NCBI GenBank assembly: GCA_947591495.1
Contig: CANQDG010000002.1
Coordinates: forward strand, 9,779-73,778
Direction: 5' to 3'
DNA from: an uncultured Bacilli bacterium
Lineage (GTDB): Bacteria; Bacillota_I; Bacilli_A; ML615J-28; CAG-313
Length of the DNA: 64,000 nt
In this document: positions 6,923 to 44,000 of the stretch, one piece after another
How positions within the stretch are numbered: the stretch's first letter is position 1
Layout of the letters: each line of letters opens with the position of its first letter
Notes under the pieces: generated by a model
The model's input: only the letters and a program-made list of their open reading frames with translations
Databases searched by the model: none
Told to the model about the DNA's origin: nothing
Program-made: the position numbers and the translations under genes

Positions 6923-7007
6923 GGGAGGGTAGCGAAGTGGCTAAACGCGGCGGACTGTAAATCCGCTCTCTCCGAGTTCGATGGTTCGAATCCGTCCCCT
7001 CCCACCA
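6923..7007 (+). tRNA. tRNA-Tyr (anticodon GTA), encoded CCA
   Basis: Hand-folded cloverleaf. Acceptor GGGAGGG/CCCTCCC, anticodon loop CT-GTA-AA (GTA at 6957-6959), a long variable arm as expected for bacterial tRNA-Tyr, T arm GATGG-TTCGAAT-CCGTC, and a 3' ACCA. Confidence 0.93.
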
Positions 7008-7025: not shown

Positions 7026-7100
7026 AGGGCTATAGCCAAGCGGTAAGGCAACGGACTTTGACTCCGTCATTCGATAGTTCGAATCTATCTAGCCCTACCA
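7026..7100 (+). tRNA. tRNA-Gln (anticodon TTG), encoded CCA
   Basis: Acceptor AGGGCTA/TAGCCCT, anticodon loop CT-TTG-AC (TTG at 7058-7060), T loop GTTCGAATC. Most of it is near-identical to B. subtilis tRNA-Gln as I recall it. Confidence 0.93.
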
Positions 7101-16683: not shown

Positions 16684-17718
16684 ATGAATAAAGTCTTAGA
16701 ATATTTTAAACAAATTTATACTAAACCCATCTTTCAAAAAATCACCGTTTATGGATGGATTTATAATTATGAATATCAGTTAATTGGTAGTGCTTTGCCA
16801 TATCTATTTGAAAAGTTAGATATAACCGAAAATCTAGCATTTCCAACTAATACCAATCGACCTCAAACGATTAAAGAGAAAAAGTATATTGTTATTCATG
16901 ATACAGGTGATACTTCTTTGGGACGTGGTGCTAAATATTGGAGTCAAGTTGTTAAAGAACAAAAATATGAAAATAAACTCTATGAGGCTAGTTTCCAATA
17001 TGTTGTTGGCAATGATGGTATCTATCATAACATTCCCGATGATGAAGTAGCCTATCATGCAGGCGATGGCACAAAATATGATTATACCTTATATGATACT
17101 CATATTAAACAAGCAAATGATTGTAAATTAACAATTAAGGAAGGCTATTATTATATTAATGGTCAAAACACTAACATTAAAGTCCCTGATGCACCTAAGG
17201 CCTTAACAACAAGTGATTTAAATGATAATGGTATTTTATGTGTTGTTCAAAATGGTACATATCATCTAGGAGAAACTTATTTTAATCAAACCTATCAAAA
17301 AATCGCCAATCGTGGTGGTAACAATAATGGCATTGGAATTGAAATGTGTATTGATGAAAAAACGGATCTTTATTTAAATTATCAAAGATTAGCAAAACTT
17401 TGTGCAATGCTTTTAGATAAATATCATTTAGATCTTTCATCGATTCGTCCTCATCACTATTTTAGTGGGAAAGATTGTCCAATGACGGCTCGTAAAAATC
17501 ATTTATGGGATCATTTTATGAAATTAGTAGAAGTCGAAAAAGCCGTTTTATCTTTTATTAAAGAAGGATATGAAATTAACCTAATACCAAAAAGCTCTAA
17601 TATTTTAAGTAGTGGTCGCATCATCAATGATTGCCATAACATTTGTTTTATTGTTACAACAAAGAAAGATAACATCGAAGAAAGTTATGAATTCAGTTGG
17701 GAAAGTCCATCTTGCTAA
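16684..17718 (+). CDS. N-acetylmuramoyl-L-alanine amidase (Amidase_2/PGRP fold)
   Basis: 344 aa. IVIHDTGD, AYHAGDG, GIGIEMC and HHYFSGKDCP match the zinc-amidase motif order. Confidence 0.75.
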   Translation: MNKVLEYFKQIYTKPIFQKITVYGWIYNYEYQLIGSALPYLFEKLDITENLAFPTNTNRPQTIKEKKYIVIHDTGDTSLGRGAKYWSQVVKEQKYENKLYEASFQYVVGNDGIYHNIPDDEVAYHAGDGTKYDYTLYDTHIKQANDCKLTIKEGYYYINGQNTNIKVPDAPKALTTSDLNDNGILCVVQNGTYHLGETYFNQTYQKIANRGGNNNGIGIEMCIDEKTDLYLNYQRLAKLCAMLLDKYHLDLSSIRPHHYFSGKDCPMTARKNHLWDHFMKLVEVEKAVLSFIKEGYEINLIPKSSNILSSGRIINDCHNICFIVTTKKDNIEESYEFSWESPSC

Positions 17719-18379
17719 ATACTTAAAAAACTATGGCAATTATACCAAAAGCGAGCTAAAAAAACTTATTGAAGAAAAACGGGTTTTGGTTAATGGAGTA
17801 TTGAAGCCTTTATCATATATTGTAAAAGAAAACGATGAAATCTTAGTTGATGGGCAAAAAATCACCCAAATCCCTAATGTTTATTATCTTTATTATAAAC
17901 CTGTTGGAATTGTTTGTACTAATAATCTTCAAATTAAAGATAATATTATTACGCATTTAAATTTACCTTATCGTGTATTTACGGTTGGCCGCCTTGATAA
18001 AAATACAAGTGGCTTAATTATTTTAACTAATGATGGTATCTTTGCTAATAAACTAATGAATCCTAATAATCATATTGAAAAAGAATATTTAGTTGAAGTT
18101 AAAAATCCTATTACTGATGAATTTTTAACAACGCTTAAAATGCCCCTATTATTAAGGGGTAAAAAAACAACTACCCCGAAAATCGCAGTAGTTGATGAAT
18201 ATCATTTAAAAATTATTATTAACGAAGGCAAATATCATCAAATTAGAAGAATGGTTATTAATGCTTCTAATTACCTTGTTTCTTTAACAAGAATAAGAAT
18301 TGGACCATATGTTTTAGGTAATTTAAAAAGTGATGAATTAAGAAAAATAACAAAAGGAAAAAGATATGAAAAAGATTAA
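17687..18379 (+). CDS. pseudouridine synthase, RsuA/RluB family (S4 domain plus catalytic domain)
   Basis: S4-like LAKYLKNYGNYTKSELKKLIEEKRVLVNG and catalytic GRLDKNTSGLIILTNDG. ORF track starts at 17612. ATG 17687 is preferred because it limits the overlap with the amidase gene to 32 nt. Confidence 0.8.
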   Translation: MNSVGKVHLAKYLKNYGNYTKSELKKLIEEKRVLVNGVLKPLSYIVKENDEILVDGQKITQIPNVYYLYYKPVGIVCTNNLQIKDNIITHLNLPYRVFTVGRLDKNTSGLIILTNDGIFANKLMNPNNHIEKEYLVEVKNPITDEFLTTLKMPLLLRGKKTTTPKIAVVDEYHLKIIINEGKYHQIRRMVINASNYLVSLTRIRIGPYVLGNLKSDELRKITKGKRYEKD

Positions 18380-21230: not shown

Positions 21231-22496
21231 GTGAAGTTAAAAATAACTAGTAGAGCAAGGTTAAAAGGCACGATTAAAATAAGTGGTTCTAAAAATGCTA
21301 CCTTACCACTTATGGTATGTGCTCTTTTAACATATGATGAAATTATTCTTCAAAATATTCCCCATATTAGTGATGTTTTAATGATGATGAAGTTATTACA
21401 AGATATTGGTATTAGGGTAATTTATCAAGAAGATGAAAAAACGCTTCGATTACAAAAAGAGGCTTTATTTGTTAACTTAAAAAAAGAAGATATAAAAAAA
21501 ATCAGAGCTTCTTATTATATTATGGGCGCTTTAGTTGCTAATGACCTTAATTTTAAAACACATTATCCTGGTGGATGTTCTTTTAGTAAAAGACCAATCG
21601 ATTATCACCTTGATGCTTTTAAAAAAGTAGGATATCAAATCATCGAAAAAGGCGAAGAATTAATTTTTCAAAAACTTAAAACAAGTGATGATATCATTAA
21701 TTATGACCTACCCAAGCCATCAGTAGGTGCAACTATTAATGTTTTGTTTATTAGTATTTTAAGAAAAGGTATAAGTATTATCCATAATCCCTCTTTAGAA
21801 CCTGAAGTGCAACAAGTAATTGAGATGTTAAAACTAATGGGCGCAAACATTATTCAAGAAAATAACACTCTAAAAATTGAAGGCGTTGATCATTTACATG
21901 GAATAACATATAAGATTATGAGTGATCGCATTGAAGCAGGTAGTTATTTATTACTAGCAGCATCGGTCAAAAGAAGTAAAATTATTTTTCAAAACCTTGA
22001 TTTAACTTATTTAGAAGATGTTTTAAAAACTTTAAAACAAATGGGACTACATTTCAAAAAGCATAACAATCAATTAGTTGTTAAAAAAACTAAACGCTTA
22101 ATAGGTATTAATAAAACCATTGATATTTATCCGGCTTTTCCAACTGATTTACAACAAATTTTAAGCGTTGCATGCCTTAAGGCTAAGAGCCCATCAACTA
22201 TTATTGATAAAATTTATCCCGAAAGATTAACGCATTTAAAAGAAATAAAAAAGGCTAAGGGAATTATTCAATTAGTTAATCATCAAATTAAAATATATCC
22301 ATCTTATAAGCTTGAGGCCGGTTCTTTTTATGCTAGTGATTTACGTTGTGGGTTTGCTTGTATAGTGCTAGCAGTTATGGCAAATGGAACAAGTATTATT
22401 GAAAATGCGGAATTAATTTTAAGAGGTTATGAAAATCTTATTGATAAATTACGGGGTTTGCAAGTCGCTATAGAAGAAGAAAAAGATGACTTTTAA
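21231..22496 (+). CDS. murA: UDP-N-acetylglucosamine 1-carboxyvinyltransferase
   Basis: 421 aa with a GTG start and an AAGGGTGA RBS. ISGSKNATLPLM and the active-site loop PGGCSFSKRPID (Cys retained) are present. Confidence 0.9.
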   Translation: MKLKITSRARLKGTIKISGSKNATLPLMVCALLTYDEIILQNIPHISDVLMMMKLLQDIGIRVIYQEDEKTLRLQKEALFVNLKKEDIKKIRASYYIMGALVANDLNFKTHYPGGCSFSKRPIDYHLDAFKKVGYQIIEKGEELIFQKLKTSDDIINYDLPKPSVGATINVLFISILRKGISIIHNPSLEPEVQQVIEMLKLMGANIIQENNTLKIEGVDHLHGITYKIMSDRIEAGSYLLLAASVKRSKIIFQNLDLTYLEDVLKTLKQMGLHFKKHNNQLVVKKTKRLIGINKTIDIYPAFPTDLQQILSVACLKAKSPSTIIDKIYPERLTHLKEIKKAKGIIQLVNHQIKIYPSYKLEAGSFYASDLRCGFACIVLAVMANGTSIIENAELILRGYENLIDKLRGLQVAIEEEKDDF

Positions 22497-22639
22497 TAAA
22501 TAATTTGTTATTTGAATATTTCCTATTAAATTTTCAGGAAATAATTAACATAAATACAAGATAATGTCAATATAATATCAAGATTAAAAAATTTTTTTAA
22601 GAAAATTTTAACAAAATAGCATTTATTAAATAAAAACAC

Positions 22640-22668
22640 TTGCAAAAAAAACGGAAATTTGATAAAAT
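22640..22668 (+). promoter_or_regulatory. extended -10 promoter of the giant gene
   Basis: TTGCAA (22640-22645), a 17-nt spacer, then TGaTAAAAT (TAAAAT 22663-22668). An A/T-rich tract lies upstream and the RBS AGAGGTG lies 8 nt before ATG 22708. Confidence 0.55.
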
Positions 22669-22707
22669 AAGTAGGTAAAGTCATGAAAAAAAAGAGGTGA
22701 AAAAATA

Positions 22708-23410
22708 ATGGATTTTAATCAAATCTTACTATTCGCAGGATTGGGATTACTGTTAATAGTAGTATTATTTGCATTATGGGGCTTTCTTGGTGGCTTAAAG
22801 AGAGAACTATCATGCATAGCCGTTTTCATTGTTTTACTAGTACTAGCTTGGCTAGTTTTTGGAGATTCGGCAACGCTACTTAATGCCAAAGTAGGACAAC
22901 AAGTAGCTGGAATGCTAGATCTTCATGATAGCTCTATTACTACCCTTTGGGATGCAGTACTGGCTTTTGCGAAAGCCAATATTCCAAATGGAGAGGCTTT
23001 ATTAGTAGAAGGTAAGGAAACGTACACCCTTTTCTATGGCATTGCTTCAACCGTTTGCCACGCAGTTGGTTTAATAGTTGGTACTCTTGCAATTTTAATA
23101 ATTTGTCCAATTATTCGTTTAATTACACACTTTATTGGCTTAATTATTAGAGCAGTTAAGAAAAGCAAAGCTAAAAAGAATCCTCCAGTTGAATCAACTG
23201 AGGAAGTAGAAAAGGAAAAAGAAATGGTTGTCGTTTCACGAATTGATGAAGCTGAAGAAGCTGTCTTTGTTAAAGATGCTAACGAAATTCCTGAAAAGCC
23301 TAAAGGCAAAAGACGTCTATGGGGCGCTCTTGCAGGAGCATTAAAAGGAGTTTTCGTTATTATCTTAGTTTGTGTACCACTTTCAGGAATTAGTTCAATT
23401 TTTGGAAAAT
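22708..23410 (+). other. CvpA-like multi-pass membrane domain of the giant protein
   Basis: WGFLGGLKRELSCIAVFIVLLVLAWLV and RRLWGALAGALKGVFVIILVCVPL resemble the E. coli CvpA segments IRGFVREALSLV... and DRVLGVCFGALRGVLIVAAILFFL, as I recall them. A charged insert of about 55 aa (KKSKAKKNPPVESTEEVEKEKE...KPKGKRR) separates the last two helices. Confidence 0.55.
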
Positions 23411-26400
23411 TTACACCTGAAACAAAGGCACTTGTAAAAGACTTAGTCAATGGCGATGCTAAAGTTAATTTAGCAGAATCTAACGATAACCCAGTAGACA
23501 TGGCATTTGAATTTGCTGATGCATATGATCATAGTGCACTTGGCAAATTTGCAAATGGCTCAAGTTTCTTCTTTGGTGAATCTTTCAGTGAAAAATTATT
23601 TGACCAATTACTTAAATTAGAAACTAAAAATCAAGTAATTTATTTAAGTGATGAAATTGAAGTATTCATCGAAGCAGTTAATAATTTAGAAGGTAATTTA
23701 GATTTCGAAAAGATGTCGCGAAATCAATATCGCAACTTCTTAGAAACATTAAAACAAGCCAAACTACCTGCTGAATTAATGCCAGTTGCAATTGAATATG
23801 CCTACGAAGTAGAATCAATTAACAAGATTTTAAAAGAAACTGGTGTTGAGGCTAACTTCTTAGAATTACGTTACAATAACTGGAAACACGATATTGATCT
23901 AGTTTTAAGTGCTTTACAAGAAGCATATGATTTAGATTTATTCCCTATTAAAGATCTAAATTATTTAAAATTAGATACCGAAGAATTAAGAGATGTTGTT
24001 TCTTGCTTAGGTCAAACGGAATTCATGAAAGATGGCTATCCACTAGCTGTTAAGATTCTATTGAATTTACAAGATGTTAAGAAACAAATTGGTACTGTTA
24101 CAATTGAAAAACTTGATGATTTAGATGTTGCAAGTGATTTAGATGCTTTAGTATCAATTTATGATGTATTCAAAAAATTTGGTATTGAAACATTTGAAGG
24201 CTTTGATTTTGACGCATTCATCAAAGATGTTTTAAAAGATGATGTAAAAATCGATTTAGTCTTTGATATTGCTCATCGTGTACTTGATTTACAAATTGCC
24301 CGTAAAGTAGCAGTCCCAGTTGCTTTCGGATTTGCAAAAAATAATGAAAAGTTCCAAGAGATTTTAGCAAAAGCTAAAGTAGAAGAAGATTTTGTTGCAT
24401 TAGAAAAGATTGTTACACTTGATGATTTAGCAACTTATTTAGATGCTGTAAAAGTAGCTTTAGATTTAGTTGATTTAAGCGAATATCCAACTATCAAATA
24501 TGATTATTTCCATCTTGATGCTGATTTAATGGATGATATCATTGATCGTTTATTTGCTAGTAAAGCTACTGATCCAGTTTTAAAAGTTGCAAGTAAAATT
24601 GCTTTATCTTTAGATGTTGTTACTAATAACTTAGGTGATGCGTTAAAAGATGTTGACTTATCAAGCGTTGATTGGAAAACTGAATTAAAAACATTTGTTA
24701 GCATTTATCGTGAATTCTTAAAATTAGGCTTTGAATCACTTGATGATTTTAAAGGTGATAAGATTGATTTAGTTCAAGGCTTAATTGAAGATGAAACTAA
24801 ATATAATGCAATTTCCAATATGTTATCACTTTTAGTTGATGCTCAACTATATACTAAGTTAGCTGTTCCAACAATGCAATATTTCTTAGATAAATATCTT
24901 GATGAGCATTATGTTGCTTTCAACCAAATATTTGATTTAGGTGACATTACTAAAGATGAATGGAAACAAGATTTCCAAACACTTTTAGAAAGTGCAAAAC
25001 TTGTTAACGAATTAAAAGTTTTAGATAACATTAACCCATTTGATTACAAGGCTTTAGATATCGCATCTGATAGCGGTATTGCTAAAATAAAACAATTAAT
25101 TCAAAATATTTTCGAACTTAACATTTTAGGTGATGACCAATTAAAAACTGCTTTACTTGTTGCATCAATTAAACAATTTAATTGGGTAGGTCTTGATGAA
25201 GAATATTTAGAAGATTCAACAAAATGGAATATTCGTTGGACTAATGAAGAAGAAGTATTACTACAATTAGTTGATATCTATTCTAGCGTTGTTAAATTAG
25301 ATGAATTTGATATCTTTGATTTACAATCAACTGATTGGGTAGCATTATTAGAAAGCGATGAATTCTTAGATTATGTTGTTTCTGCTTTAGAAACAGTTGT
25401 TGATTCTGATATCGTTTTAGAATTATTACCAAATTTATTAGATAAATATTTATTACCTAGACTTGAAGCAATCGAAAGTGTAGATGATGAAACATTATTC
25501 AAAGATATTTTTGAAAAATTACCATCTGATGAATTAGTTAATGAAATTATCAAATTAATCGATGTTGTTAAAAACGCTGTTAAAATTAATTTAATTGGCC
25601 ATAAAGCAAATGAAATTGATTTCAGTAATGTTGATGCATTAAAAGCAATCGTTAGTGGCATTTTTGATTCTAAACTTATTCAAGGATTTGAAGGTAGAAT
25701 TATTCGTATCTTATTAAAGGTAACTAAATTACTTGAATTAGATCCTGAATCTAGTGTTTATCAAGAACTTGTTGAAATTGATTATAGCGGTGAAAAAGAA
25801 GCTTTACTAAATTTCCTTGATGCTATCGCACCAGTATTACAAGATCCTGATTTCAAAATTTTAAACGATGAAGGAAAATTAAACTTAACTTTAAAATTCT
25901 GGAGTGAAAATGAAAAAGCTCAAAGCTTATTAAATGGTTTAAAAGCTTTACTTGGTAGTTATCCTGACAATGATGAAACAAGTTCAAAATTAATCGAAGT
26001 ATTACTTCCTGCTATCTATGGTCAATATGTTGATGGCAAAGATATTATTCCAAGCGATTATAAAGAATTAATCGATGAATTAGACATTGCTAATGCTACA
26101 GGTGAACAATTAACAAGTGCATTACGTCGTTTAATCTTTGTTGCAGAAGAATTAGTAAAGATTGATGCTCAAAGCTTATTAGATGGTGGCGATATGGAAA
26201 TCGCATCTGAAAAAGCAATTGATTCATTCAAAGGTATTTTAGATGCTCTTCATGATATCGAATTATTCCGTGGACATGAAGCAAAAGTTCTTGCTTGGGG
26301 CGTTAATTTTGTTGCAAAACAATTAAAGATTAATGTTGATCCTATTACTGATGAATTTGATAATGTTGATTGGTTAGGCCAAAATGAAGTTTATAAAGAT

Positions 26401-29400
26401 ATCCTTGATGATTTAGGATTATTCTTAAGAAATAACGATATTATTACACTTAACCAATTAAAAGACTTCATCAAAGATAAGAAGTATAATACAAGTGAAT
26501 TCATTACAAAAGAAAATATGAATGATTTACTTGATATCGTTGACAAAGTTGTTGATGTTCAAGTAATCGATGCAGTAATGCCACTTGTTGTAAAATATGG
26601 CGTTCAACTCTTAAATGATCGTAACGTTATTAATCTTGATTATGTTAAAGATTTCACCAATGAAGAAATCAATCATGATGTTCATAGCATCGTCGCTATT
26701 GCTCATAAATTAGTTGATGAATTAGATATCGTATCATATTACAATGCTAAATTTGATGGCGATATGCCTCTTCCTAATGTAGAAGTTGTTCAATCATTAG
26801 TTGATGATATTTTTGAATTAAATATCATTACAAAAGCTGAAGGTAGACTTGGTAATGCTATTTTTGATATGGTAGCAAGCAGAACTAATGTTGATGAAAC
26901 ATTATCATTAACAGCTGAAGACTTTAAATTTGCTAGTATTGATTGGTCAGAAGAAAAAGAAGTATTCAAAGACTTAATTGCTAAAGCTTACGATTTCTTA
27001 GAAGTTAATAACATTACAACAATGACTAACCTTCAAAGATTCTTTAAAGAAAAATGGTATACTGAACCTGCTATCTTAAGAGATGAAACTGGTTATGTAG
27101 CTAGTGATGTTTTAAGAGTTTTACAAAATTCACAACTTGTTGAAAATGTGATCGTTAAATTATATCAATATGGCATTGATTATGTAAGCAATAATAAATC
27201 TTTCAAATTACCATTTGATATTAGTTATATGAGAGAAATGGAAGCTGCTGAATTATTAGCTGATCTTGGTGTTGTTGCTGATATCGCTGATAAAGCTGTT
27301 AAATTCGGTATTATGAGTTACTTAGCAGATGGTGATATTCATAACATTGATATAACTATTCTTGCTGATGCTGTTGAAGAAGATTTAACTAGATTAAATA
27401 TTCTTGCTCATTATGGCCAAAGATTAATTGGTGATGCCGCAAATTATGGTTTGAATTATCTTGAAAGCGTAACTCATGGTGACTTTGTATTATCACAAGA
27501 AAATATCAATGAAATTGATTATAAACATGAATTAGTTGTTCTTGCCGATACGATTAGATCTGCTCAAGCATTCCTTGATGCTAAAAATATTAGATTCTTT
27601 AGTGATATCTTTGACTTCGTTGATGATGTTAGAGTTAATAATCCACTTAAGAATAAAGCATTCTTTGATCGTGAAACTTATGATGCTTTAGTTGATATTG
27701 CATCTGCTGCTTCTAATTTACAATTATTAGAATTATTAGGCCCACAACTTTTAAATCATGCTATTCGTTATGCTGAACAAGTAAAAGTTGATCTTTCATT
27801 CTTAGATACAGAAGAATACACTGGTGCTTTCTTTGTTGAAGATATTAGAGTAGTATTAGAAATGGCTGATTATGGCTATGACTTTGGTTTAATTGATCTT
27901 GCATTTGATAAGACTTTATATACACTTGAGTTTGAAGCATTATGTAATATGTTAGATTCTGTTCCTGAACTTCATCTTGCACAATTATACTATGCTGATT
28001 TAGTAGCTTTAGGTGTTAATAATGGCTTAAAAGCTGTTAAGATTGAAAAGAGTGTTGATCGTTCATTATTTGCTGAAATAGATCTTAACACTGAAATTAA
28101 AGAATTAAAAGAAGTATTAATGGCTATAAAACCATTACTTGCTGAAAAAGAAGTTGTAACTCTTACTAACTTAATTGATTTAGTTAAGGCTCAATATCCT
28201 GCTAATACTTACAAGATGGCTGCTTTCTATGATATAGCAACAGGCGAATTACTTGAAAAAGTTGTATATGAAGCTGCTGATTTACAAACACTTGCTGTAT
28301 TATTACCAAAAGCATTAAATTATGGTGTTGATCGTTTAACTCAAGTTAACTTAAGTTTCCTTAAAGATTCATTCACTAGTGAAGAATTAGCAAGTGATCT
28401 TAAAGTTGTATCAGGATTAATCGTTCCTGCTATTAAAGCCGAATTAGTAGGTCTTGCTTTCGGTGCTAAAGTTAATGATTTACCATTACATTTCGATGTT
28501 TACAATGAAATGTTAGATGTTGTAAAAGATCTTAACATTTTACAAGCTAAATATGGTGAGTTTGTAAGCATGGGTACAAATAGTGTTCTTAAAGCATTAA
28601 AGTCAACACAAGAAGTAACTGCTGATTTATTCAGTGATGTTGTTCTAGCCGATGAAGCTGAAGCTTTAAAGAACGTTATAAACCGTGTTGCAACTCTTGC
28701 TGAAGAATTAGATGCTAAAACAGTATATGATGTTAGATACATTATTACTGATCTTATCCAAAACAAACAATATAAAGAAGAAAAATATACTAATAGAACA
28801 ACTGTAACAGAATTATTAGACATTGTAGATGCTGCATTAGATGTTCAAACTGTTCAATTATTATTAACTCCAACTATCACTACTCATTTAAGTGAATTTG
28901 CTTCATTACATGGTGTAGATCTTGCCTTCTTATTTAGATATGCTACAAGAGAAGCATTAGTTGAAGACTTAGATAGTATTGTTGTAACATTAAGAGATTT
29001 AGTTGATTATGGTATGTTAGAATTTGCATTACGTGATGGTAGCATTGATGTAACAGATATTACACCAATTAAAGATGCTATTGATCGCCTTGCTCATTTA
29101 CATATTTTAGAAAATAATCATGCTGATGTTGTCTTCTTAGTATTAGATAAACTTGGTATTGATAAAACAGGCGTTGATTTAAGTAATATTGATTTAGATC
29201 AAGAAGTTGCAAGCGTTCAAGATATTCTTGAACAAGCTAAAGAAATCTTATTGATGGAAGACGTTGATCAATATGCAGAAATCAAAGGTATCGATTTCAA
29301 TAAATATTTGAAACTTGATAGTAAGACTAATGAATATATTGATGTCTTTGCACCATTACTAAAAGCTCTTGCAAAAGATCAATTAGTAGAAAGATTAGGA

Positions 29401-32400
29401 CTTGCCGTTTCTCGTAAATACCTTGCTAACTTTGCTTCAAAATATGAAGGATTAGCTGATATTTATAACATTTATACAGATGGAAAACAATTAACTAGTG
29501 ACTTATCTGATTTAGCAGATATCTTATTAGAAATAAGAGCAATTGATCTTGTTTCTTCAATCGCAAGTGATAATCCATATCCATATGATAAAGTTGAAAA
29601 CATCTCAAAGATTATTAAATTATTATTAAGCTTGAATTACTTCAACATTGATGAAAATAGAGCTGACGATTTCATTAAAGCTTTAGATCCACATGTTAAA
29701 GCTGATTTAAGTAGCGTTGATGCTAAGGGCGTTGATTTAAGAAGTGATGCTGATATCTTTGCTGCAATGTATGAAGATTTAGCTAACATTTTAACTCATG
29801 AATCATTCCCTATTAAGAGCAAAAATGATTTGAACCCAGTTAAATTTAATAATAATTTATTAAAATCATCACTTGTTTATGAAAGTGCTGTTGATGCTCT
29901 TCTTAAATTTATGGATACAACTGTTTATAACAAGACAGCTGCTGGACTTATCATGCTTACATTCCCTCTTGTTGAAAAATATGCTCCTGAATATTATAGT
30001 GCTTTAGATTTAGCTGTACTTACTAAAGAAACTATTACCGAAGATTTACCACTTTTAAAAGATATTCTCTTAAAAGTAGACGCAATGGATTTAGGCAAAT
30101 TAGCTGAAGAAAAATCAGTATTTACAGCTGAGGTTGAAGATTTAATCAATACTGTAATTGATAGTATTGCTAAATCACAAATTCTTGCTAACCATGGTAA
30201 TGCTGTATTCGAAGTTACAATGGATAAATTTGTTAATGGTAAGACTCTTGGCAATATTGTTATCCCAACTGGTGCAATCGTTGCTGACGGCGTTGATTTT
30301 GTTGAAGATAAAGATTTATATAAACGATTAGTTAGCAAAATAATTGGATTATTAAATAGACAAGATGTTTATACTATTCAAGAATTAAAAGATTATGTAA
30401 ATGCATTTAAAGCAAATGCTAAAGCTGAATTATTAAGCTTTGTATCATTAGAAGAAAATGATACAGATGTGGCTGACATTCTTAAGATCTTAACTGATAT
30501 TACCATTGTTGAAGTAAATGGTTTATCAATTATGAATAATATTGTTCATCCAGCATTACCAAGTGCTTTAGGTAAAGTTATTGACTTTACAATGTTTACA
30601 AAAGATGAATTTGCAAGCGACTTAAAGGCTGCTGCCCTTATGGTAAGTCAATTCAATCAATTTGGTCTTGCATCAATTGCTCGTAATGAAAACATCAATT
30701 ACAATCAAGCTAAGTTAGTTCAAGCAATGCTTGAAAATATAGTATCTACTAACTATGTAAAATATAACTTAGATTCATTAATTGATTACGTTGATGGATT
30801 CAATTTACCAATTAAGTTTGAAGCCTTAAAAGCTGATGAATTTGATTATAAACATGATGCTAATGTTCTTGCACAAGTATATGAACAAATGATTCCATTC
30901 TTGACTTCTAATCATAATCCACTTAAGACAAGAAGAGATATTAAGGATTTAATTAGTAATAACTTTAAATTAGATACCGATTTGAAACAAGTAATGAAAG
31001 AATTCAAAAATGATTTACTAGATGCTTATGATGAACTTGTTCAAATGACTGCTATTCCACTATTACTTAATGAATTAGCAAATTATGGTAAAGCTTTAAC
31101 CCCAACTAACTACAAACATCTATTTGATTTACTTGCAATTGATGAATTAACATATGCTGAAAAAGCAGATGATGTAATGCAAACTGCTAGAATCCTTAGA
31201 TTAGTTGTTGACTTAGAATTATACAAAGTAGTAACAACAAAAGATTATAATTTTGCAGGCGACATTCTTTCAACTTTATATGGTAAAGAAGAAAGTAAAG
31301 TTACTTTAATTACTAATCTTGTTGATGAAGTTTATGCACTTAATGTTTTAAGAAATCGTTCTGATTTAATGCTTGAATTATTAAATGCTCTTGAAACTGA
31401 TACTACTGAAGTAGATTTAAGTGATGTTGATTGGGATAACGAAGTTACTCAATTAAAAGTTGTTATTGCAAATGGCTTAGAATTATTATTAGAATATGAT
31501 ATTCAAACTATTCAAAATGCCAAAGATTATGCGCGCGATTTATTGAACTTGAGGTCAGCTAATGCCATCTTAGATGAACTTAAAGCAATTAATAATAAAG
31601 TTAATGTAAGCCTTGGCGTAGAAATCTTCGAGGCCATCGATGAATCGAAGGCATTTGATCAAATTTTCAAACCTCTTTATAATAAATACGTATTTACTAA
31701 ATTACCTGCTAAATTCGTTGAAGTTGGTGATTTAAGCGAATACAAACCTAGCGATTTAGCTGAAGATATTCATTCTCTCGCAATTGCTGCCCGTGCTTTA
31801 TTAAATATTAAAGATTTAGAAGGCACTGTTAAAGATAATAGAGATTCTGCAGAGTGCATTTCCCAAGCACAAGCAATTATCAAAGCTTTATTCTCATTGA
31901 ATTACTTAGATTTGAAGAAACAAGCATTAGTTGATGTTGCAGCAGACATTAATGCATCATTCAAACTTGATACTTTAGATGTAACTGGTGTTAACTTCAA
32001 AGCTGATGGTGAAATTATTGCTGAATATGCAGAACAAATCTTAATGATTTTAACTGAAACAAATATTTTACGTGCTATTAGATTTGACCAATTTGGTGAT
32101 ACATATCTAATGTCAGATGTTGTTGAATTATACAATGGTTTAGTTGAAACAACCTTATTTGATGCAGTTTCTGTATGGGCATTCAGAGCTCATGTTGAAC
32201 CAAGAATTGAAGACATCGAACAATTGAAGAAATATTCATTCACAGATGAAAAGATTCATTTAATTGGTGTTAAATTCGGTGAAACATTAGATGCTATGCT
32301 TGATATGGGCTTCTTCAGTAATTATGGTGTTGATTTCACTAATAAAGAAAATACTGATCGCTTATTTGTATTATTAACAGATGTCTTTGAACCAAGCGAT

Positions 32401-34845
32401 AAAGTTAGCAAATTAGTTGATAAGTTTAAAGCTAATATGGCAGAATTTGGTGTTATTGACCTTTCTTATGAAGGCATTAATGCTAAACCTGAATTTGATG
32501 CTTTAAAAGCTGTTATGTCAAGCGTATCGTCATTTGCTAAGACATATATGAATAAGTTAACATCTGATTTCACGGTTTTAGTTGATCCAACATTCCAAGA
32601 TGATCTTGTAAATGTATTTGAAAAAGTCTTTGCTTCAAGAATGCTTGCTCAACTTGCTCTTCCTCTTATGAGTGGTTCTGTAAGAATCTTAACACAAGAT
32701 ACTGAAACATTACATCTATTAGATAACCTTGACAATGATGAATTCTTAAATATCTTCTTACCAGATTTATTTGACTTATTTGCTGCTGCTGATAAATTAG
32801 ATTTATTGAATAAGAAGGTAAATTACAATGACGCAAGCGCTATCGTTGATGCATTTGATGTATTAGTACATAAAGATTCATTCAAAGATTACGTAAGCGA
32901 AATTGTTAAATTTGCAATGGTATTTGTAGGCATTAATGTTAAAGATGTTGATTTAAGTAAAGTAGATTGGGATAAAGAATATCAAGCAATCGATAAAGCC
33001 TTAAATGGTGCTTTAAAAGAACCTCTAAAAGATGTTAAGGCTTCTGATCGTAAGACATTCTTAAATGAAACATTCTTAAATGCTCTTGCTATAGCAATGC
33101 CAGAATTCAATGACTCAGACTTAATTCCATTACTTTCTCGTCAATTATTAGAATTCATGGCCAATAAAGTTGCTGGCGATAGCTATGATACATATGTTAA
33201 CCGTCTATTTGACCCTGATTATACTGATGAATTATTAGTCGAAGACTATAAGGCATTCCCTGAAATCTTAAAATTAGTAGCTAAAGCAGACTTATTTGCT
33301 GAAGGTGGCTTAACTAATGATAAATATCCTATCATTGGTGATCTACTTGAAAAATTATTAGCACTTAACTTTGCTGAAGGTATTGAACCTAGATTATTAG
33401 AAACTTGCTTCAAACGTACATCTGCTCTTGATTCTTATGATGTTGATTTTGAAACAGTTCTTGACTGGGCTGCTGAAAGAGCTGCTTTCGCAGAAGTATT
33501 ACGTAAATTAGGTGCCTTTGCTTCATTCGAAGATGTTGATGTTAAAGATACTGAAATGCAAGATAATTTTGTTGCTTTAGTTGATGCTATGAGTAAATCA
33601 GAAATTGGCCGTCAATTATTACCACAAATTTATGATCAAAATATCGAACCTAAGATTGGTAATTTAGGTGAAGATTATCAAGGTGTTATTGACTTTAATG
33701 ATCCTGAATTTACGCCTGATGTATGGGCTGATGAATTTAGAGCTTTATTTGATGCATATAATAAATTAGATAAGATGGGCCCTATTGAAGAATTAGATAT
33801 GAAACAAAAACAAACACAAGATGATTTTGTTGGTTTAGTTGGTATCGTTGAAAAATCAATAATTGGTCGCAAATTATTTAAGAAAATTTGGGCATCTCAA
33901 ATTGCAACTAAATTAGGTGAAGATTATGCTGATATCATTGATTTAGAACAAGAAGTTTGGTCTAATCAATTTACTGATATGTTTGAAGTTTACACAGCAT
34001 TCACTAAATTTGCTTCATTAGATGATATTGATATGTCATCTCAAGAAGATCAAAATACATTCTTAGATGCTGTTGAAGTTGCTGCTAAGACCGAAGTTGG
34101 TCAAAAGTTCTTCAAGAAGATTTATGGTTTACATATCAAACCTGCTCTAAGTAAGCTTGGTGAAGATTATGCTGAAATCATTAATGTTGAAACATTAGCT
34201 CCTGAGATGTGGAAAGATGAATTTGCTAAGTTATTTAATGCTTACAATAAATTCTCACAAGAAGCAGCCTCATTAACTATTGATGATTCAATTGAATTAA
34301 TGAATATCTTATTCGGTACTGATATGGATCATAAAGATGATGGTATCAAAGAAGTTGTTGCACATCCTGACAAATGGGTTAAAAAAGTTCTTGATCCTGA
34401 AAAATCATACTTTACATTACCTGATCATGCTAAACTTGATAATGAAACAGAACGTGATTGGTTAGCTGAAGCTTATGCTTTAAAAGCTGTTCTAGAAGCT
34501 ATGAAGGCATTCGCTGATGAATCACCTGAATATGGTGGCAAATTCAATTATGATGTTGCATATAAATCAACTGATAGCACTAAGATTAAAGCTTTATTCT
34601 TAGCTGTATCTAAATGTAAAGCTGTTCGTGGTAGTATGGTTGAAATGATTTTTGATGCTACTGCTGATGTTCCTGGTATGCAAGAACAATTAGAAACATT
34701 AGGTGTTATTGATGAAACATTAAAAGGCGAAAAAACTGCTTATGAAAGCGATCCAACTCATTTCAATGAAGCATATTGGACAGAAGATAGAATCACTAAC
34801 TTAGCAGAAGGTATTGCTAGAGCTAACGAAGAATTAAATGCATAG
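22708..34845 (+). CDS. giant (4,045 aa) membrane-anchored, acid-rich helical-repeat protein of unknown function
   Basis: Single uninterrupted ORF of 12,138 nt with its own promoter, RBS and terminator. It has N-terminal TM helices with CvpA-like motifs and then about 3,800 aa of D/E/L/V/K-rich sequence made of diverged repeating modules. I recognise no enzymatic motif, LPXTG, S-layer or known adhesin domain. Confidence 0.9.
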   Translation: MDFNQILLFAGLGLLLIVVLFALWGFLGGLKRELSCIAVFIVLLVLAWLVFGDSATLLNAKVGQQVAGMLDLHDSSITTLWDAVLAFAKANIPNGEALLVEGKETYTLFYGIASTVCHAVGLIVGTLAILIICPIIRLITHFIGLIIRAVKKSKAKKNPPVESTEEVEKEKEMVVVSRIDEAEEAVFVKDANEIPEKPKGKRRLWGALAGALKGVFVIILVCVPLSGISSIFGKFTPETKALVKDLVNGDAKVNLAESNDNPVDMAFEFADAYDHSALGKFANGSSFFFGESFSEKLFDQLLKLETKNQVIYLSDEIEVFIEAVNNLEGNLDFEKMSRNQYRNFLETLKQAKLPAELMPVAIEYAYEVESINKILKETGVEANFLELRYNNWKHDIDLVLSALQEAYDLDLFPIKDLNYLKLDTEELRDVVSCLGQTEFMKDGYPLAVKILLNLQDVKKQIGTVTIEKLDDLDVASDLDALVSIYDVFKKFGIETFEGFDFDAFIKDVLKDDVKIDLVFDIAHRVLDLQIARKVAVPVAFGFAKNNEKFQEILAKAKVEEDFVALEKIVTLDDLATYLDAVKVALDLVDLSEYPTIKYDYFHLDADLMDDIIDRLFASKATDPVLKVASKIALSLDVVTNNLGDALKDVDLSSVDWKTELKTFVSIYREFLKLGFESLDDFKGDKIDLVQGLIEDETKYNAISNMLSLLVDAQLYTKLAVPTMQYFLDKYLDEHYVAFNQIFDLGDITKDEWKQDFQTLLESAKLVNELKVLDNINPFDYKALDIASDSGIAKIKQLIQNIFELNILGDDQLKTALLVASIKQFNWVGLDEEYLEDSTKWNIRWTNEEEVLLQLVDIYSSVVKLDEFDIFDLQSTDWVALLESDEFLDYVVSALETVVDSDIVLELLPNLLDKYLLPRLEAIESVDDETLFKDIFEKLPSDELVNEIIKLIDVVKNAVKINLIGHKANEIDFSNVDALKAIVSGIFDSKLIQGFEGRIIRILLKVTKLLELDPESSVYQELVEIDYSGEKEALLNFLDAIAPVLQDPDFKILNDEGKLNLTLKFWSENEKAQSLLNGLKALLGSYPDNDETSSKLIEVLLPAIYGQYVDGKDIIPSDYKELIDELDIANATGEQLTSALRRLIFVAEELVKIDAQSLLDGGDMEIASEKAIDSFKGILDALHDIELFRGHEAKVLAWGVNFVAKQLKINVDPITDEFDNVDWLGQNEVYKDILDDLGLFLRNNDIITLNQLKDFIKDKKYNTSEFITKENMNDLLDIVDKVVDVQVIDAVMPLVVKYGVQLLNDRNVINLDYVKDFTNEEINHDVHSIVAIAHKLVDELDIVSYYNAKFDGDMPLPNVEVVQSLVDDIFELNIITKAEGRLGNAIFDMVASRTNVDETLSLTAEDFKFASIDWSEEKEVFKDLIAKAYDFLEVNNITTMTNLQRFFKEKWYTEPAILRDETGYVASDVLRVLQNSQLVENVIVKLYQYGIDYVSNNKSFKLPFDISYMREMEAAELLADLGVVADIADKAVKFGIMSYLADGDIHNIDITILADAVEEDLTRLNILAHYGQRLIGDAANYGLNYLESVTHGDFVLSQENINEIDYKHELVVLADTIRSAQAFLDAKNIRFFSDIFDFVDDVRVNNPLKNKAFFDRETYDALVDIASAASNLQLLELLGPQLLNHAIRYAEQVKVDLSFLDTEEYTGAFFVEDIRVVLEMADYGYDFGLIDLAFDKTLYTLEFEALCNMLDSVPELHLAQLYYADLVALGVNNGLKAVKIEKSVDRSLFAEIDLNTEIKELKEVLMAIKPLLAEKEVVTLTNLIDLVKAQYPANTYKMAAFYDIATGELLEKVVYEAADLQTLAVLLPKALNYGVDRLTQVNLSFLKDSFTSEELASDLKVVSGLIVPAIKAELVGLAFGAKVNDLPLHFDVYNEMLDVVKDLNILQAKYGEFVSMGTNSVLKALKSTQEVTADLFSDVVLADEAEALKNVINRVATLAEELDAKTVYDVRYIITDLIQNKQYKEEKYTNRTTVTELLDIVDAALDVQTVQLLLTPTITTHLSEFASLHGVDLAFLFRYATREALVEDLDSIVVTLRDLVDYGMLEFALRDGSIDVTDITPIKDAIDRLAHLHILENNHADVVFLVLDKLGIDKTGVDLSNIDLDQEVASVQDILEQAKEILLMEDVDQYAEIKGIDFNKYLKLDSKTNEYIDVFAPLLKALAKDQLVERLGLAVSRKYLANFASKYEGLADIYNIYTDGKQLTSDLSDLADILLEIRAIDLVSSIASDNPYPYDKVENISKIIKLLLSLNYFNIDENRADDFIKALDPHVKADLSSVDAKGVDLRSDADIFAAMYEDLANILTHESFPIKSKNDLNPVKFNNNLLKSSLVYESAVDALLKFMDTTVYNKTAAGLIMLTFPLVEKYAPEYYSALDLAVLTKETITEDLPLLKDILLKVDAMDLGKLAEEKSVFTAEVEDLINTVIDSIAKSQILANHGNAVFEVTMDKFVNGKTLGNIVIPTGAIVADGVDFVEDKDLYKRLVSKIIGLLNRQDVYTIQELKDYVNAFKANAKAELLSFVSLEENDTDVADILKILTDITIVEVNGLSIMNNIVHPALPSALGKVIDFTMFTKDEFASDLKAAALMVSQFNQFGLASIARNENINYNQAKLVQAMLENIVSTNYVKYNLDSLIDYVDGFNLPIKFEALKADEFDYKHDANVLAQVYEQMIPFLTSNHNPLKTRRDIKDLISNNFKLDTDLKQVMKEFKNDLLDAYDELVQMTAIPLLLNELANYGKALTPTNYKHLFDLLAIDELTYAEKADDVMQTARILRLVVDLELYKVVTTKDYNFAGDILSTLYGKEESKVTLITNLVDEVYALNVLRNRSDLMLELLNALETDTTEVDLSDVDWDNEVTQLKVVIANGLELLLEYDIQTIQNAKDYARDLLNLRSANAILDELKAINNKVNVSLGVEIFEAIDESKAFDQIFKPLYNKYVFTKLPAKFVEVGDLSEYKPSDLAEDIHSLAIAARALLNIKDLEGTVKDNRDSAECISQAQAIIKALFSLNYLDLKKQALVDVAADINASFKLDTLDVTGVNFKADGEIIAEYAEQILMILTETNILRAIRFDQFGDTYLMSDVVELYNGLVETTLFDAVSVWAFRAHVEPRIEDIEQLKKYSFTDEKIHLIGVKFGETLDAMLDMGFFSNYGVDFTNKENTDRLFVLLTDVFEPSDKVSKLVDKFKANMAEFGVIDLSYEGINAKPEFDALKAVMSSVSSFAKTYMNKLTSDFTVLVDPTFQDDLVNVFEKVFASRMLAQLALPLMSGSVRILTQDTETLHLLDNLDNDEFLNIFLPDLFDLFAAADKLDLLNKKVNYNDASAIVDAFDVLVHKDSFKDYVSEIVKFAMVFVGINVKDVDLSKVDWDKEYQAIDKALNGALKEPLKDVKASDRKTFLNETFLNALAIAMPEFNDSDLIPLLSRQLLEFMANKVAGDSYDTYVNRLFDPDYTDELLVEDYKAFPEILKLVAKADLFAEGGLTNDKYPIIGDLLEKLLALNFAEGIEPRLLETCFKRTSALDSYDVDFETVLDWAAERAAFAEVLRKLGAFASFEDVDVKDTEMQDNFVALVDAMSKSEIGRQLLPQIYDQNIEPKIGNLGEDYQGVIDFNDPEFTPDVWADEFRALFDAYNKLDKMGPIEELDMKQKQTQDDFVGLVGIVEKSIIGRKLFKKIWASQIATKLGEDYADIIDLEQEVWSNQFTDMFEVYTAFTKFASLDDIDMSSQEDQNTFLDAVEVAAKTEVGQKFFKKIYGLHIKPALSKLGEDYAEIINVETLAPEMWKDEFAKLFNAYNKFSQEAASLTIDDSIELMNILFGTDMDHKDDGIKEVVAHPDKWVKKVLDPEKSYFTLPDHAKLDNETERDWLAEAYALKAVLEAMKAFADESPEYGGKFNYDVAYKSTDSTKIKALFLAVSKCKAVRGSMVEMIFDATADVPGMQEQLETLGVIDETLKGEKTAYESDPTHFNEAYWTEDRITNLAEGIARANEELNA
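33547..34275 (+). repeat. three tandem coding repeats of about 78-83 aa near the C-terminus of the giant protein
   Basis: Units start at 33547, 33796 and 34030 (D-x-x-M/Q...Q-D/N-x-F). Each contains (E/T)(I/V)G(R/Q)(K/Q)(L/F)..(K/Q)I(Y/W) and then LGEDY..(I/V)I(D/N)...W..(E/Q)F...F..Y(N/T)(K/A)(L/F). The LGEDY codons recur at 33664, 33913 and 34156. Confidence 0.85.
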
Positions 34846-34856
34846 CATAAACATTA

Positions 34857-34886
34857 AAGGGTAAGGGTTTATCCCCTTATCCTTTT
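34857..34886 (+). terminator. rho-independent terminator of the giant gene
   Basis: aagggtaaggg (34857-34867) pairs with cccttatcctt (34874-34884, one G:T pair) around a 6-nt loop, followed by TTTT. Confidence 0.7.
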
Positions 34887-34898
34887 GTTAAAAAAAAT

Positions 34899-41073: not shown

Positions 41074-44000
41074 ATGAAAAAGGGTAAGAGTATATTAATA
41101 TTAATTTTCTTTTTCTTATTTTCGATATTGATTATTCAACCTAAAGTTGAAGGAGCTAACAATTTAGTAGCAATAAAAGTGCACGGAACCAATAGCGATT
41201 TAAAATATCGTAATTCAACCGAAACTGTTATGCGTTTAGCTGAATATAATTATCCAACAAGCCAATTAAGAGCAGTATGGGTAACTCCTTTAACAGGTGA
41301 TATAAGTTCATATAAGTCAGAAAGTGCTTTTAAACAAGAATTAAATGAAGTTTTAGATAACATGGAAAAATGGGGTATGAATACATTAGTCTTTCATGTT
41401 CGGACTCATAATAATGCGATGTATCGCTCTGAATTAAATCCACTTGCTTCTTATTTTAAAGGAGTTGATTTTGATGTTTTCGATCCACTTGCATGGCTAA
41501 TTGATGAATGCCATTCACGTGGCATTGAATTTCATGCTTGGCTTAATCCATATCGGGTTAGTACAACTGGTAATATTAATCAAAGTAAAGCCGAAGATCT
41601 TCCTGCGGTTAATCCCGCAAATGATCCAGAAAACTTATTACAAGTTAATTCAAGTATTATTTTAGACCCAGGTATTCCACTTGTTAGAGAATTCTTAGTT
41701 GATACATGTATGGAATTAATTGAAAATTATGACGTTGATGCTATCAATTTTGATGATTACTTCTATATTAGTGGAGCTGATGATGCGGCAACAAGAGCTA
41801 AATATAATACGGAAAATTTATCACTTGAAAACTTTAGACGGGCATCAGTTAATAGCTTTATTGAGGCTTTATCAAAAAGTATTAGAGCATACAATACAGC
41901 TAACAATAAGGCCGTTCAATTAGGTATTGCTCCATCTGGAATTTATCGTAATGGTGGTTATGTTGCATCACCTACATATGATGCAAACGGAAATCTTACT
42001 AGTCCAACTTATTCTGATACTAGTGGAATGGAACATTATGGAAATTACTTGTATGCAGATACATTAAACTGGATCAATAATGAATGGATTGATTATATTA
42101 TGCCTCAACTTTATTGGGCTATTGAACATACTACCGCAAGTTATGCTGCTCTTACTAGATGGTGGAGTTGGGCTGTAAAAAATAAAAAAGTAAACTTCTA
42201 TGCTGGCCTTGGTATATATATGGCAATCGATAGTGGCTCTAGTGCTCAATACTGGCAATATAATGATAACGAAATTGAACTACAACTTTTAAATGGTGGT
42301 CAATATGAAGAATTTGGTGGTGCTTGTTTTTATCGTTATGGTAGTTTAATTAGCGGTTATAATAACCACCCAGTTATTACTAATGCAATTGATTTAATTT
42401 CTAATGATTATTGGCAAAAAAGAGTGCCAGGAGCTGTTAGTAAATATTATGCCCCTCTTATTCCTGAAATTGCGCCAACAAATGTAATATATGATTCTGC
42501 AACTAATTTACTTTCCTTTGATGAAGTAAAGGATTGTAGAGGCTATATGATCTATAAAGTTCCTAAAGGTCAAATCCTTGATAAAAACAATATTGATCAT
42601 GTATATCAATATATTCAAACTAATCAAATTACAATCGATGATGTTGCCTCATACGATTATTATGTTGCATCAGTTAACAAAGCCAATGAAACAAGTGAGG
42701 CTGTTGCATTAACGGCGAAAATGACATATAAAGATGTTATTTTAGCTATTGATAATTTACCAGAAGTTATTACTTATGAAAATAAAGAACAAGTTGAACA
42801 AGTTAGAAAGTTATATGATAGTCTACCAGAAGAAGAAAAAGTTCAAGTTACTAATTACCTTAAATTAACTGAAGCTGAAGCCATCATAATTAAATATGAA
42901 GCCCTTCAAGATACTTTAACTAATTATATTAAGACCCTTGATTTACATATTAAAACATCGCGTAAAATTGATTTACCAACTAATATGAGTTTACAATATA
43001 AAGATGCATCTGATCAAGCTTTATATAATATTGAAACTGGTGAAAAATTAAAGAACTATTTAGCGGTTAAAGAAATTTGCTTGATTATTAGTATTACCGA
43101 AGATAATTTAACAGTAAGTCAAGAAATAATGGTTAATATTGGTTATACTAGCAAAACTCAACAAGCTTTATTCTATCGTAATGACCCAAGCAGTATGAGT
43201 CCTGATGATGAAGGGGCTTATGGAGCATCCCATAGTAGTTATATTGGTTGGTCAGGTCATACGCTAGTAGTAGAAGATGTTATTTTATATATTGCAAGAA
43301 CTAACTATTTTGAAATAACTGATAGTAGCAATATTGAACCATGTCATTTCTCATCGGTTGCGGGGGTATATGTAAATAAAACATCTAGCCCATTAACCCT
43401 AAAAATGACTGATGCTTTTGAAAAGAATTCATCTAATAATGATGGATATATCGTTATTGGCAAAAATGAAGTCAAAGAAGTATCCCATGGCTTTGATGCT
43501 AATAAAACGATTACTTTAGAAAAAGATGATACTTTAATTATTTTTAGATATTTAGATGGTAGTATTACTAATAATCCCCTTGTTCCAGTAACCAAAATAA
43601 AGGTTGGAACTAAAGCTTATATTGATGAAGAAGTTGAGCTAAATGATGAAGAAAAAGTTCAAGCAGTAATTGAGTTAATTAATACCATTCCTGCTGATAT
43701 TACTTTAGAAACTGAATCACTTTTAAATCAAATAAAAGAAGTCTATGATGCATTAGATGAATCATTAAAACCATTAGTAACAAATAGTCAAAAATTAACA
43801 GATGCTTTAGATAAACTTGCTAAACTTAAAACCGAATTAGCAAACAAAAAGCAAGAAGCTATTTCTGCTATTCAAAACCATCTTGATTTAGATAATTATA
43901 GTCCAGCTAGTCAACAACAAATTAATAATATTTGCGCAAGTGCTGCTATTAAAATTAATAATGCTACATCACTTGAGGAAGTTGAAAGAATTTTTAACGA

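Follow-up and report, generated by a model that had tools for sequence, protein, structure and literature searches.

Giant proteins built from tandem helical repeats have been described in staphylococci. Ebh of Staphylococcus aureus and Embp of S. epidermidis contain tandem all-alpha repeats of 125 to 170 amino acids (aa) with low mutual identity, secondary structure that is conserved and surfaces that carry negative charge. The repeats assemble into rigid rods, 7 nm per repeat, and the length of Ebh has been estimated at ~320 nm (PMC7587433). Two further systems concern the membrane end of such a protein. CvpA of Escherichia coli is predicted to cross the membrane four times and to place its C-terminus in the periplasm, with a C-terminal segment whose length varies between species (bioRxiv 10.1101/2020.09.25.314492), and MarP (Rv3671c) of mycobacteria joins four N-terminal transmembrane (TM) helices to a periplasmic protease domain (PMC4992679). 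Here, we describe a giant gene in a 64,000-nucleotide (nt) stretch of DNA from an uncultured Bacilli bacterium (GTDB lineage ML615J-28, CAG-313; contig CANQDG010000002.1, positions 9,779 to 73,778), referred to below as the window. Its product consists largely of tandem helical modules behind a CvpA-like membrane domain and may form a polyanionic fibre or spacer of helices that is anchored in the membrane and lies on the cell surface. The family to which it belongs is unannotated and lineage-wide, and is a variant of the giant repeat surface proteins.

Twenty tandem modules of about 184 residues

The gene is a single intact open reading frame (ORF) from an ATG at 22708 to a TAG at 34845 on the forward strand. 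It encodes 4045 aa rich in Asp and Glu (17.6%, with Lys and Arg at 9.7%) and in Leu (13.4%). An earlier note on this DNA, made by reading the sequence, had proposed a regular periodicity of at least 17 helical modules marked by a short anchor motif, and our results bear out that periodicity. The smoothed autocorrelation of residues 600 to 3650 (BLOSUM62) has maxima at lags of ~190, 380 and 570. We hand-cut 12 modules at the proposed anchors (alignment A1; 14-25% identity to the first module) and compared each with a profile of the other 11. The scores were 26 to 91 bits, with a maximum of 12.3 bits in 100 shuffles and no more than 8.9 bits in reversed sequences. Furthermore, an independent profile, trained on 540 modules from homologous proteins of other organisms only and excluding the window protein, tiled residues 295 to 3867 without a gap as 20 consecutive modules scoring 20 to 140 bits; the maximum in controls (30 shuffles and the reversed sequence) was 4.0 bits. 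These tests confirm 20 tandem modules of ~184 aa between residues 295 and 3867. The parts of the protein are as follows, with bits given as scores against the independent profile:

22708-34845 (+): giant gene, 4045 aa
22708-23415 (+): N-terminal membrane domain, aa 1-236
23416-23589 (+): conserved juxtamembrane segment, aa 237-294, with the family motif SS(F/Y)FFG.SFS
23590-24093 (+): module 1, degenerate, aa 295-462, 21.1 bits
24094-24639 (+): module 2, degenerate, aa 463-644, 33.6 bits
24640-25206 (+): module 3, aa 645-833, 78.7 bits (leave-one-out 25.9 bits), anchor at residue 654
25207-25758 (+): module 4, aa 834-1017, 68.2 bits
25759-26334 (+): module 5, aa 1018-1209, 86.2 bits (leave-one-out 41.1 bits)
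26335-26907 (+): module 6, aa 1210-1400, 140.4 bits, modelled singly
26908-28050 (+): modules 7 and 8, aa 1401-1593 and 1594-1781, 114.3 and 115.0 bits, modelled as a pair (construct nt 26908-28047)
28051-29157 (+): modules 9 and 10, aa 1782-1968 and 1969-2150, 95.0 and 108.5 bits
29158-30261 (+): modules 11 and 12, aa 2151-2331 and 2332-2518, 84.0 and 71.5 bits
30262-31395 (+): modules 13 and 14, aa 2519-2701 and 2702-2896, 82.9 and 82.7 bits
31396-31959 (+): module 15, aa 2897-3084, 88.1 bits
31960-32931 (+): modules 16 and 17, shorter (~162 aa), aa 3085-3247 and 3248-3408, 32.3 and 28.3 bits
32932-33426 (+): module 18, aa 3409-3573, 64.9 bits
33427-34308 (+): modules 19 and 20, atypical, aa 3574-3734 and 3735-3867, 38.0 and 20.1 bits
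34309-34842 (+): non-repeat C-terminal tail, aa 3868-4045, ending ...YWTEDRI...

The 17 anchors of the earlier note fall one per module in modules 3 to 19; the note missed the degenerate N-terminal modules at residues 295 and 463 and the partial C-terminal module at 3735. Sixteen of the anchors lie 5 to 11 residues from a module start. The remaining one, at residue 875, lies at offset 41, outside the register, and the in-register anchor of module 4 is at approximately residue 846 (IRWTNEEE, assigned by eye from the translation). The nucleotide anchors were correct, except that 28636 should read 28639. The order of sub-blocks within a module also holds: the family consensus, VDVSAIDFANIDWAAEAELLKEII...EALLPVLLKY...LTNEELAEDLKTLVDIL...LFELNILNG..., repeats I-D-W-x-x-E, LLP, T-x-E-E-L-x-x-D-L and L-N-I-L in that order, with W13, E16, P83, T110, D117, G132 and N161 as its most conserved positions.

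An argument could be made that there is no true repeat and that the periodicity is a by-product of a low-complexity, acidic, helix-forming composition, or of misassembly. Self-BLASTP of the protein returned only the self-hit with no internal match, a strict regular expression for the anchor matched only four times, and pairwise module scores were low (15-73 bits). With so few matches the motif alone is unconvincing; the profile tests are convincing, and self-BLASTP is silent because the repeats are too diverged for pairwise methods. Against an artefact stand the leave-one-out scores, the gap-free tiling by a profile from other species, a 184-aa spacing common to 24 proteins, and intact orthologues in 25 genomes. 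These statistics and orthologues refute the artefact reading, which we regard as next to impossible. Tandem Repeats Finder detected no long-period DNA repeat in the gene, in line with the earlier claim that the copies share no long identical stretches, and this absence together with the silent self-BLASTP indicates that the copies are old.

The module has an internal history of its own. When its first half was aligned with its second by hhalign, the match had a probability of 91% and a score of 29.7, compared with 4.5 to 9.8 for 20 column-shuffled controls and 9.6 for the reversed control. It follows that the 184-aa module arose long ago by A/B duplication of a unit of ~90 aa. This qualifies the earlier view of the helical module as the fixed basic unit: a helical module of ~184 aa exists, but the underlying unit is the half-module. 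AlphaFold2 supports the helical part of that view. A single module, with 12 paralogous modules as alignment, was predicted as ten helices (mean predicted local distance difference test score, pLDDT, 80.4; predicted template-modelling score, pTM, 0.70), and two consecutive modules with a six-row alignment reached a pLDDT of 80.4 and a pTM of 0.72, with a short coil at the junction. The latter value suggests a defined geometry between predicted modules.

Our analysis thereby defines a new all-alpha domain of ~184 aa, an A/B pair of ~90-aa units. Neither the repeat module nor the family has an entry in Pfam, NCBIfam, PHROGs or the PDB. In Foldseek searches of the PDB nothing was significant (best E 1.5 for one module and 0.79 for two, TM-score at most 0.31), and a profile search of PDB sequences with the module gave no match. 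Pfam returned no family at E up to 1 for the whole protein except two chance-level matches, and no family recurred among the 12 modules searched singly. NCBIfam had no match for the repeat and PHROGs none at E up to 0.01. We also found no description of the family in literature on giant genes, on CAG-324 with ML615J-28, or on CvpA with MarP. A phage tape-measure ("ruler") protein was considered and rejected, given the lack of a PHROG match and the housekeeping neighbours in conserved chromosomal synteny.

The closest functional analogues are Ebh and Embp, which are likewise megadalton-scale proteins of Gram-positive envelopes with tens of tandem all-alpha modules, although the extended shape of the giant is inferred. 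The modules differ in architecture, with approximately ten helices in an A/B pair predicted for the giant and two connected three-helix bundles in Ebh and Embp. FIVAR, GA and DUF1542 had no match in the giant (Pfam, whole protein and 12 single modules), and 2DGJ, 6GV8 and 6GV5 were not among the Foldseek PDB matches listed for the one- or two-module model. Armadillo and HEAT alpha-solenoids, such as beta-catenin and importins, are also all-helical repeats and recurred as a weak Foldseek background for the two-module model. However, those matches were nonsignificant (E of at least 2.8, TM-score ~0.2 or lower), the repeat unit is ~90 or 184 aa rather than ~40 aa, and Pfam found no ARM or HEAT match in the giant.

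Toward the C-terminal end the array becomes less regular. Modules 16 to 20 are shorter (133-165 aa), and module 16 contains LDAMLDMGFFSNYGVDFTN (nt 32287-32343, aa 3194-3212), the most conserved motif of the family outside the membrane domain. Its family consensus is LLEMGVFSN.GIDFTN, with G3201, F3203 and N3205 invariant in 13 proteins, and such conservation may mark a functional site. Modules 19 and 20 include a ~78-aa unit in triplicate (nt 33538-33777, 33796-34011 and 34030-34260; 38-39% identical, E 2e-20 and 2e-18). Among 20 homologues with any match to this unit, 15 have one strong copy and 5 have none, so that the triplication is, judging from these sequences, specific to this lineage. 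The tail has no Pfam match; it is conserved in close relatives, where E3921, W4024 and A4033 are invariant or nearly so. At the other end of the array, the juxtamembrane columns Y273, S276, S285, F288 and F289 are invariant or nearly so in an alignment of 13 proteins (A3).

The membrane domain and the location of the array

A hydropathy scan places four hydrophobic segments at ~aa 1-32, 33-60, 111-150 and 203-236. The CvpA/Colicin V family, PF02674, matches the N-terminus of the window protein at 19.8 bits (E 8e-4), with aa 14-64 aligned to profile positions 5-52 (helices 1-2), and TM4 of several homologues matches positions 96-119. In addition, a small paralogue of the giant (L001:6195-9731) matches positions 1-122 with 29.7 bits, for a gathering score of 29.3. 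On the evidence of these matches, the N-terminal ~236 aa are probably a diverged CvpA-like four-helix membrane domain. The likeness extends from the four hydrophobic segments and weak matches at helices 1-2 and 4 to a predicted four-TM topology with the C-terminus outside and a C-terminal part of variable length. There are differences as well. CvpA stands alone at ~160-200 aa, whereas 94% of the 4045-aa giant, ~3800 extra residues, lies beyond the membrane domain. The TM3-TM4 loop also carries a charged insert of ~50-100 aa (~52 aa in the window protein). MarP, the TM region of which is classified in PF02674, resembles the giant in being a fusion protein built on a four-TM N-terminal domain. 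If this assignment is right, the giant extends the little-understood CvpA family to a case in which the C-terminal part, variable and facing outward, has expanded to 3800 residues.

Several features suggest that the array lies outside the membrane. Lys and Arg were counted in 20 family members, of which the window protein is one. All of these have 6 to 19 in the TM3-TM4 loop, and relatives with short loops have 6 to 10 within 9 to 21 residues. The TM1-TM2 turn reads GLKRE, and the TM2-TM3 loop and the 40 residues past TM4 are acidic, with 1 to 5 Lys/Arg. Under the positive-inside rule, this distribution would put the array on the outer side, in agreement with the topology of CvpA and MarP, whose C-terminal parts are described as outside. 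Cysteine is known to be excluded from exported Firmicutes proteins. It makes up 5 of the 3809 array residues (0.13%) but 1.20% of residues across the window's 40 other ORFs (binomial P 2e-14); the homologues contain 0.08-0.74%. The hydropathy scan revealed no further convincing TM segment in the array and no strong hydrophobic segment near the C-terminus. Ebh and Embp have a YSIRK-type signal and a C-terminal membrane anchor. In the giant, the N-terminus has four TM segments instead of a cleavable YSIRK-type signal, and a C-terminal membrane or wall anchor is lacking; Embp, by comparison, has an N-terminal export signal (PMC7587433). Anchoring through an N-terminal CvpA-like domain, rather than a sortase or C-terminal anchor, would be unusual for a giant protein on an envelope of the Gram-positive type.

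We consider the chances about even that the protein serves as a helical, polyanionic fibre or spacer, held at the cell surface by a membrane anchor. In this model, both ends of the CvpA-like domain would be outside the cell, TM4, which follows the Lys/Arg cluster KPKGKRR, would act as an uncleaved signal-anchor, and the remaining ~3800 residues would be exported. Outside, 20 consecutive all-alpha modules, each an ancient A/B pair of approximately ten helices, would be followed by the conserved tail of ~180 aa. The array has 688 Asp and Glu and 369 Lys and Arg, and with this acidic excess of ~320 it would form a polyanion of elongated shape, with a length of very roughly 100 nm, that crosses a thin wall and projects past it. 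The length is an estimate by analogy, because the 170-aa helical F-repeat of staphylococcal Embp measures 7 nm. Such a fibre could serve as a structural spacer or envelope coat that displays the conserved distal modules and tail, and its length could be tuned between species through module number (17-33). The data establish the module array, its helical nature, the CvpA-like anchor, the family and its synteny; the outside location, the rod shape anticipated by the earlier note, the length and the envelope role are inferred. The position of the gene next to murA weakly points to an envelope role, and the window also includes envelope-related genes for an Amidase_2 protein, DapF and YabQ.

A number of points weigh against this reading. 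The topology derives from a crude hydropathy scan and the positive-inside rule, and were the third hydrophobic segment, of ~40 residues, a hairpin, the topology would invert. Cysteine depletion could stem from repeat composition rather than export. The 19.8-bit match to PF02674 is below the Pfam gathering score, the two-module model joins its modules by coil with no continuous helix, and the adjacency to murA is circumstantial.

With the topology reversed, the array would be suspended from the cytoplasmic side of the membrane as a giant scaffold or ruler resembling a cytoskeleton, with a role in, for example, cell shape or division. Very long acidic all-helical proteins are common among cytoskeletal scaffolds, the export of 3800 residues is costly, and in P0010, P0026 and P0080 the hydropathy scan splits the ~40-residue third segment in two, which would flip the C-terminus inside. 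Yet with a cytoplasmic array, the TM3-TM4 loop, rich in Lys and Arg, and the GLKRE turn would face outward, breaking the positive-inside rule in every member examined. It also runs counter to the C-terminus-out descriptions of CvpA and MarP and to a cysteine content nine-fold lower than in the cytoplasmic proteins of the window. We judge this alternative distinctly unlikely. The setting for such a scaffold would be thin-walled or wall-less relatives of Mollicutes.

A family maintained downstream of murA

The modules extracted from the protein, turned into a profile as the earlier note had proposed, retrieved 98 cluster representatives from a search of the representatives of 1.84 billion proteins. 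About two dozen of these are full-length giants of 3857 to 6731 aa, and none of the 29 cluster members examined had a descriptive name. Homology queries with three modules or with the N-terminal 640 aa yielded fragments only, and the full-length relatives were thus taken from the profile search. In 24 full-length members there are 17 to 33 modules per protein at a median spacing of 184 aa (interquartile range 178-189; 535 spacings). The modules occupy 67-89% of the protein (81-89% in all members but one), and protein length follows module number (r = 0.96). Hence the "fixed length" of the earlier note applies to the module, which is nearly constant, but not to the protein, which varies between species. 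The N-terminus is almost uniform across members, M(M)DF(N/K)(L/Q)ILL..G.GLL...GLKRE, and the tails that follow the array are 156 to 961 aa long. We define the family, the CvpA-anchored giant 184-aa-module proteins, by the N-terminal and juxtamembrane motifs, a tandem run of 17 or more ~184-aa modules, and a gene site downstream of murA; the window protein has all of these.

Scanning one genome per GTDB species identified 25 loci, for which SS(F/Y)FFG.SFS was one of two retrieval patterns. The giant gene is downstream of murA in nearly all of them, within a conserved order of aspA (-), murA, giant, ABC-F, M29, M18, TspO and GHL10 that holds even where the giants are ~25% identical. Record titles include Staphylococcus sp. 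CAG:324, uncultured Mollicutes, Acholeplasmatales UBA11505, an Anaeroplasma bactoclasticum metagenome-assembled genome (MAG) and Erysipelotrichaceae, and many further loci are titled "Bacilli bacterium" and come from MAGs of human and animal guts. One label calls for caution: the "Prevotella sp." MAG (L011, JAMPDF010000003.1) and the "Anaeroplasma bactoclasticum" MAG (L012) share locus coordinates and near-identical matches, and the Prevotella name is probably a binning or naming error.

The copies within the array were established long ago. A three-module block aligned colinearly with orthologues is 51-61% identical, in contrast with 22-27% for out-of-register, paralogous alignments, and the modules therefore diverged before the species split. 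In 25 species-level lineages of uncultured gut Bacilli, a gene of 12 to 20 kb has stayed intact and colinear without changing its place on the chromosome, and such a gene must have a strongly selected function. The earlier description of the array as ancient, under selection and no assembly artefact is upheld by these comparisons. In some lineages, module number is still growing by recent duplication, as is evident from P0003 (6731 aa; same contig as L019), in which consecutive ~184-aa modules are almost letter-identical. The old copies of the window protein contrast with these recent ones.

Most loci also have a small paralogue of 983 to 1178 aa between murA and the giant, for example L001:6195-9731 (+) and L017:6758-9709 (+). 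It combines a CvpA-like four-TM N-terminus with three to five copies of the module. It is absent from the corresponding position in the window (22497-22707) and in L003.

If the array is exported, its modules might themselves bind host mucus, matrix, dietary particles or other cells and thereby promote attachment or aggregation in the gut. This adhesin reading is compatible with export and differs from a surface fibre or spacer in purpose only. The 25 source genomes are, without exception, MAGs associated with the gut or with animals, and Ebh and Embp provide a precedent for helical repeats in which each unit binds a ligand, with the F and FG repeats of Embp binding fibronectin. Moreover, module number varies between species, and the near-identical duplications in P0003 are typical of adhesins under diversifying pressure. 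Nevertheless, the giant behaves as a syntenic core gene with vertical inheritance and colinear modules, while typical adhesins are more variable and strain specific, and Pfam searches of the whole protein and of single modules detected no known adhesion domain. We therefore view an adhesin as a serious, if unlikely, contender.

The envelope of these bacteria may offer further context for a surface fibre or spacer. For the related orders RFN20 and ML615J-28, a thin wall or none at all has been predicted, along with the absence of sortases and of standard teichoic-acid pathways (PMC10868615). Given the reported loss of sortases, a membrane anchor would be the available means to hold a surface protein, and it is plausible that such lineages rely on anchoring by an N-terminal membrane domain and perhaps also have a polyanionic layer of protein. 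A more specific idea, which we regard as a long shot, is that the giant takes the place of (lipo)teichoic acid as a proteinaceous polyanion, anchored in the membrane, with a net charge of ~-320 and a length that depends on how many modules it has. It would occupy the wall zone and fix its dimensions, buffer cations and protect the membrane, for instance against bile salts or cationic peptides, in gut Bacilli lineages reported to be without sortases and standard teichoic-acid pathways. If true, a single giant gene and its ~1000-aa paralogue, not a glycopolymer pathway, would organise envelope architecture in these uncultured lineages. More generally, the family offers a tangible way into the envelope biology of lineages that stand between Firmicutes with a wall and Mollicutes without one.

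Expression signals and other genes of the window

The giant gene looks functional, judging from the sequence signals around it:

22640-22668 (+): promoter-like site, TTGCAA, 17-nt spacer and TAAAAT with a TG extension; sigma-70-like, by consensus match only
22692-22699 (+): Shine-Dalgarno AAGAGGTG, 8 nt 5' of the ATG at 22708, seen directly in the sequence
34856-34889 (+): intrinsic terminator, a 12-bp hairpin (A AAGGGUAAGGG / CCCUUAUCCUUU region) followed by a U-rich tract

The promoter-like site is 40 nt upstream of the start codon. The terminator hairpin starts 11 nt past the stop codon and has a folding free energy of -18.2 kcal/mol (z -3.9); none of 200 shuffles was as stable. Because no terminator was found in the gap between the end of murA at 22496 and the giant gene, the two are possibly co-transcribed.

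The window has a G+C content of 26-32%, and its other genes are housekeeping genes, including those for SHMT, TrkA/TrkH, an Amidase_2 protein, AspA, MurA, ABC-F, aminopeptidases, LysRS, DapF and YabQ. It therefore represents bacterial chromosome and not a mobile element. Genes for the spore cortex protein YabQ (6392-6853, +), the Amidase_2 protein of the N-acetylmuramoyl-L-alanine amidase family (16684-17718, +), MurA (21231-22496, +) and DapF (56917-57693, +) suggest that the organism retains peptidoglycan and remnants of sporulation.

Another large protein (1479 aa; 41074-45513, +) is annotated only at aa 64-383, as a GHL10 glycosyl-hydrolase-like domain, which leaves ~1100 aa without annotation; the protein is syntenic downstream of the giant in several loci. 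An Rfam scan of the window returned two tRNAs and nothing else. They form a pair at 6923-7004 and 7026-7097, and just past them are two neighbouring paralogous genes for AAA_14 + DUF4143 ATPases (7172-8512, -, and 8818-10089, -). Finally, the amidase ORF (16684-17718) and a pseudouridine synthase ORF (17612-18379, +) share 107 nt as listed, and the listed GTG start of the latter is probably set too far upstream.

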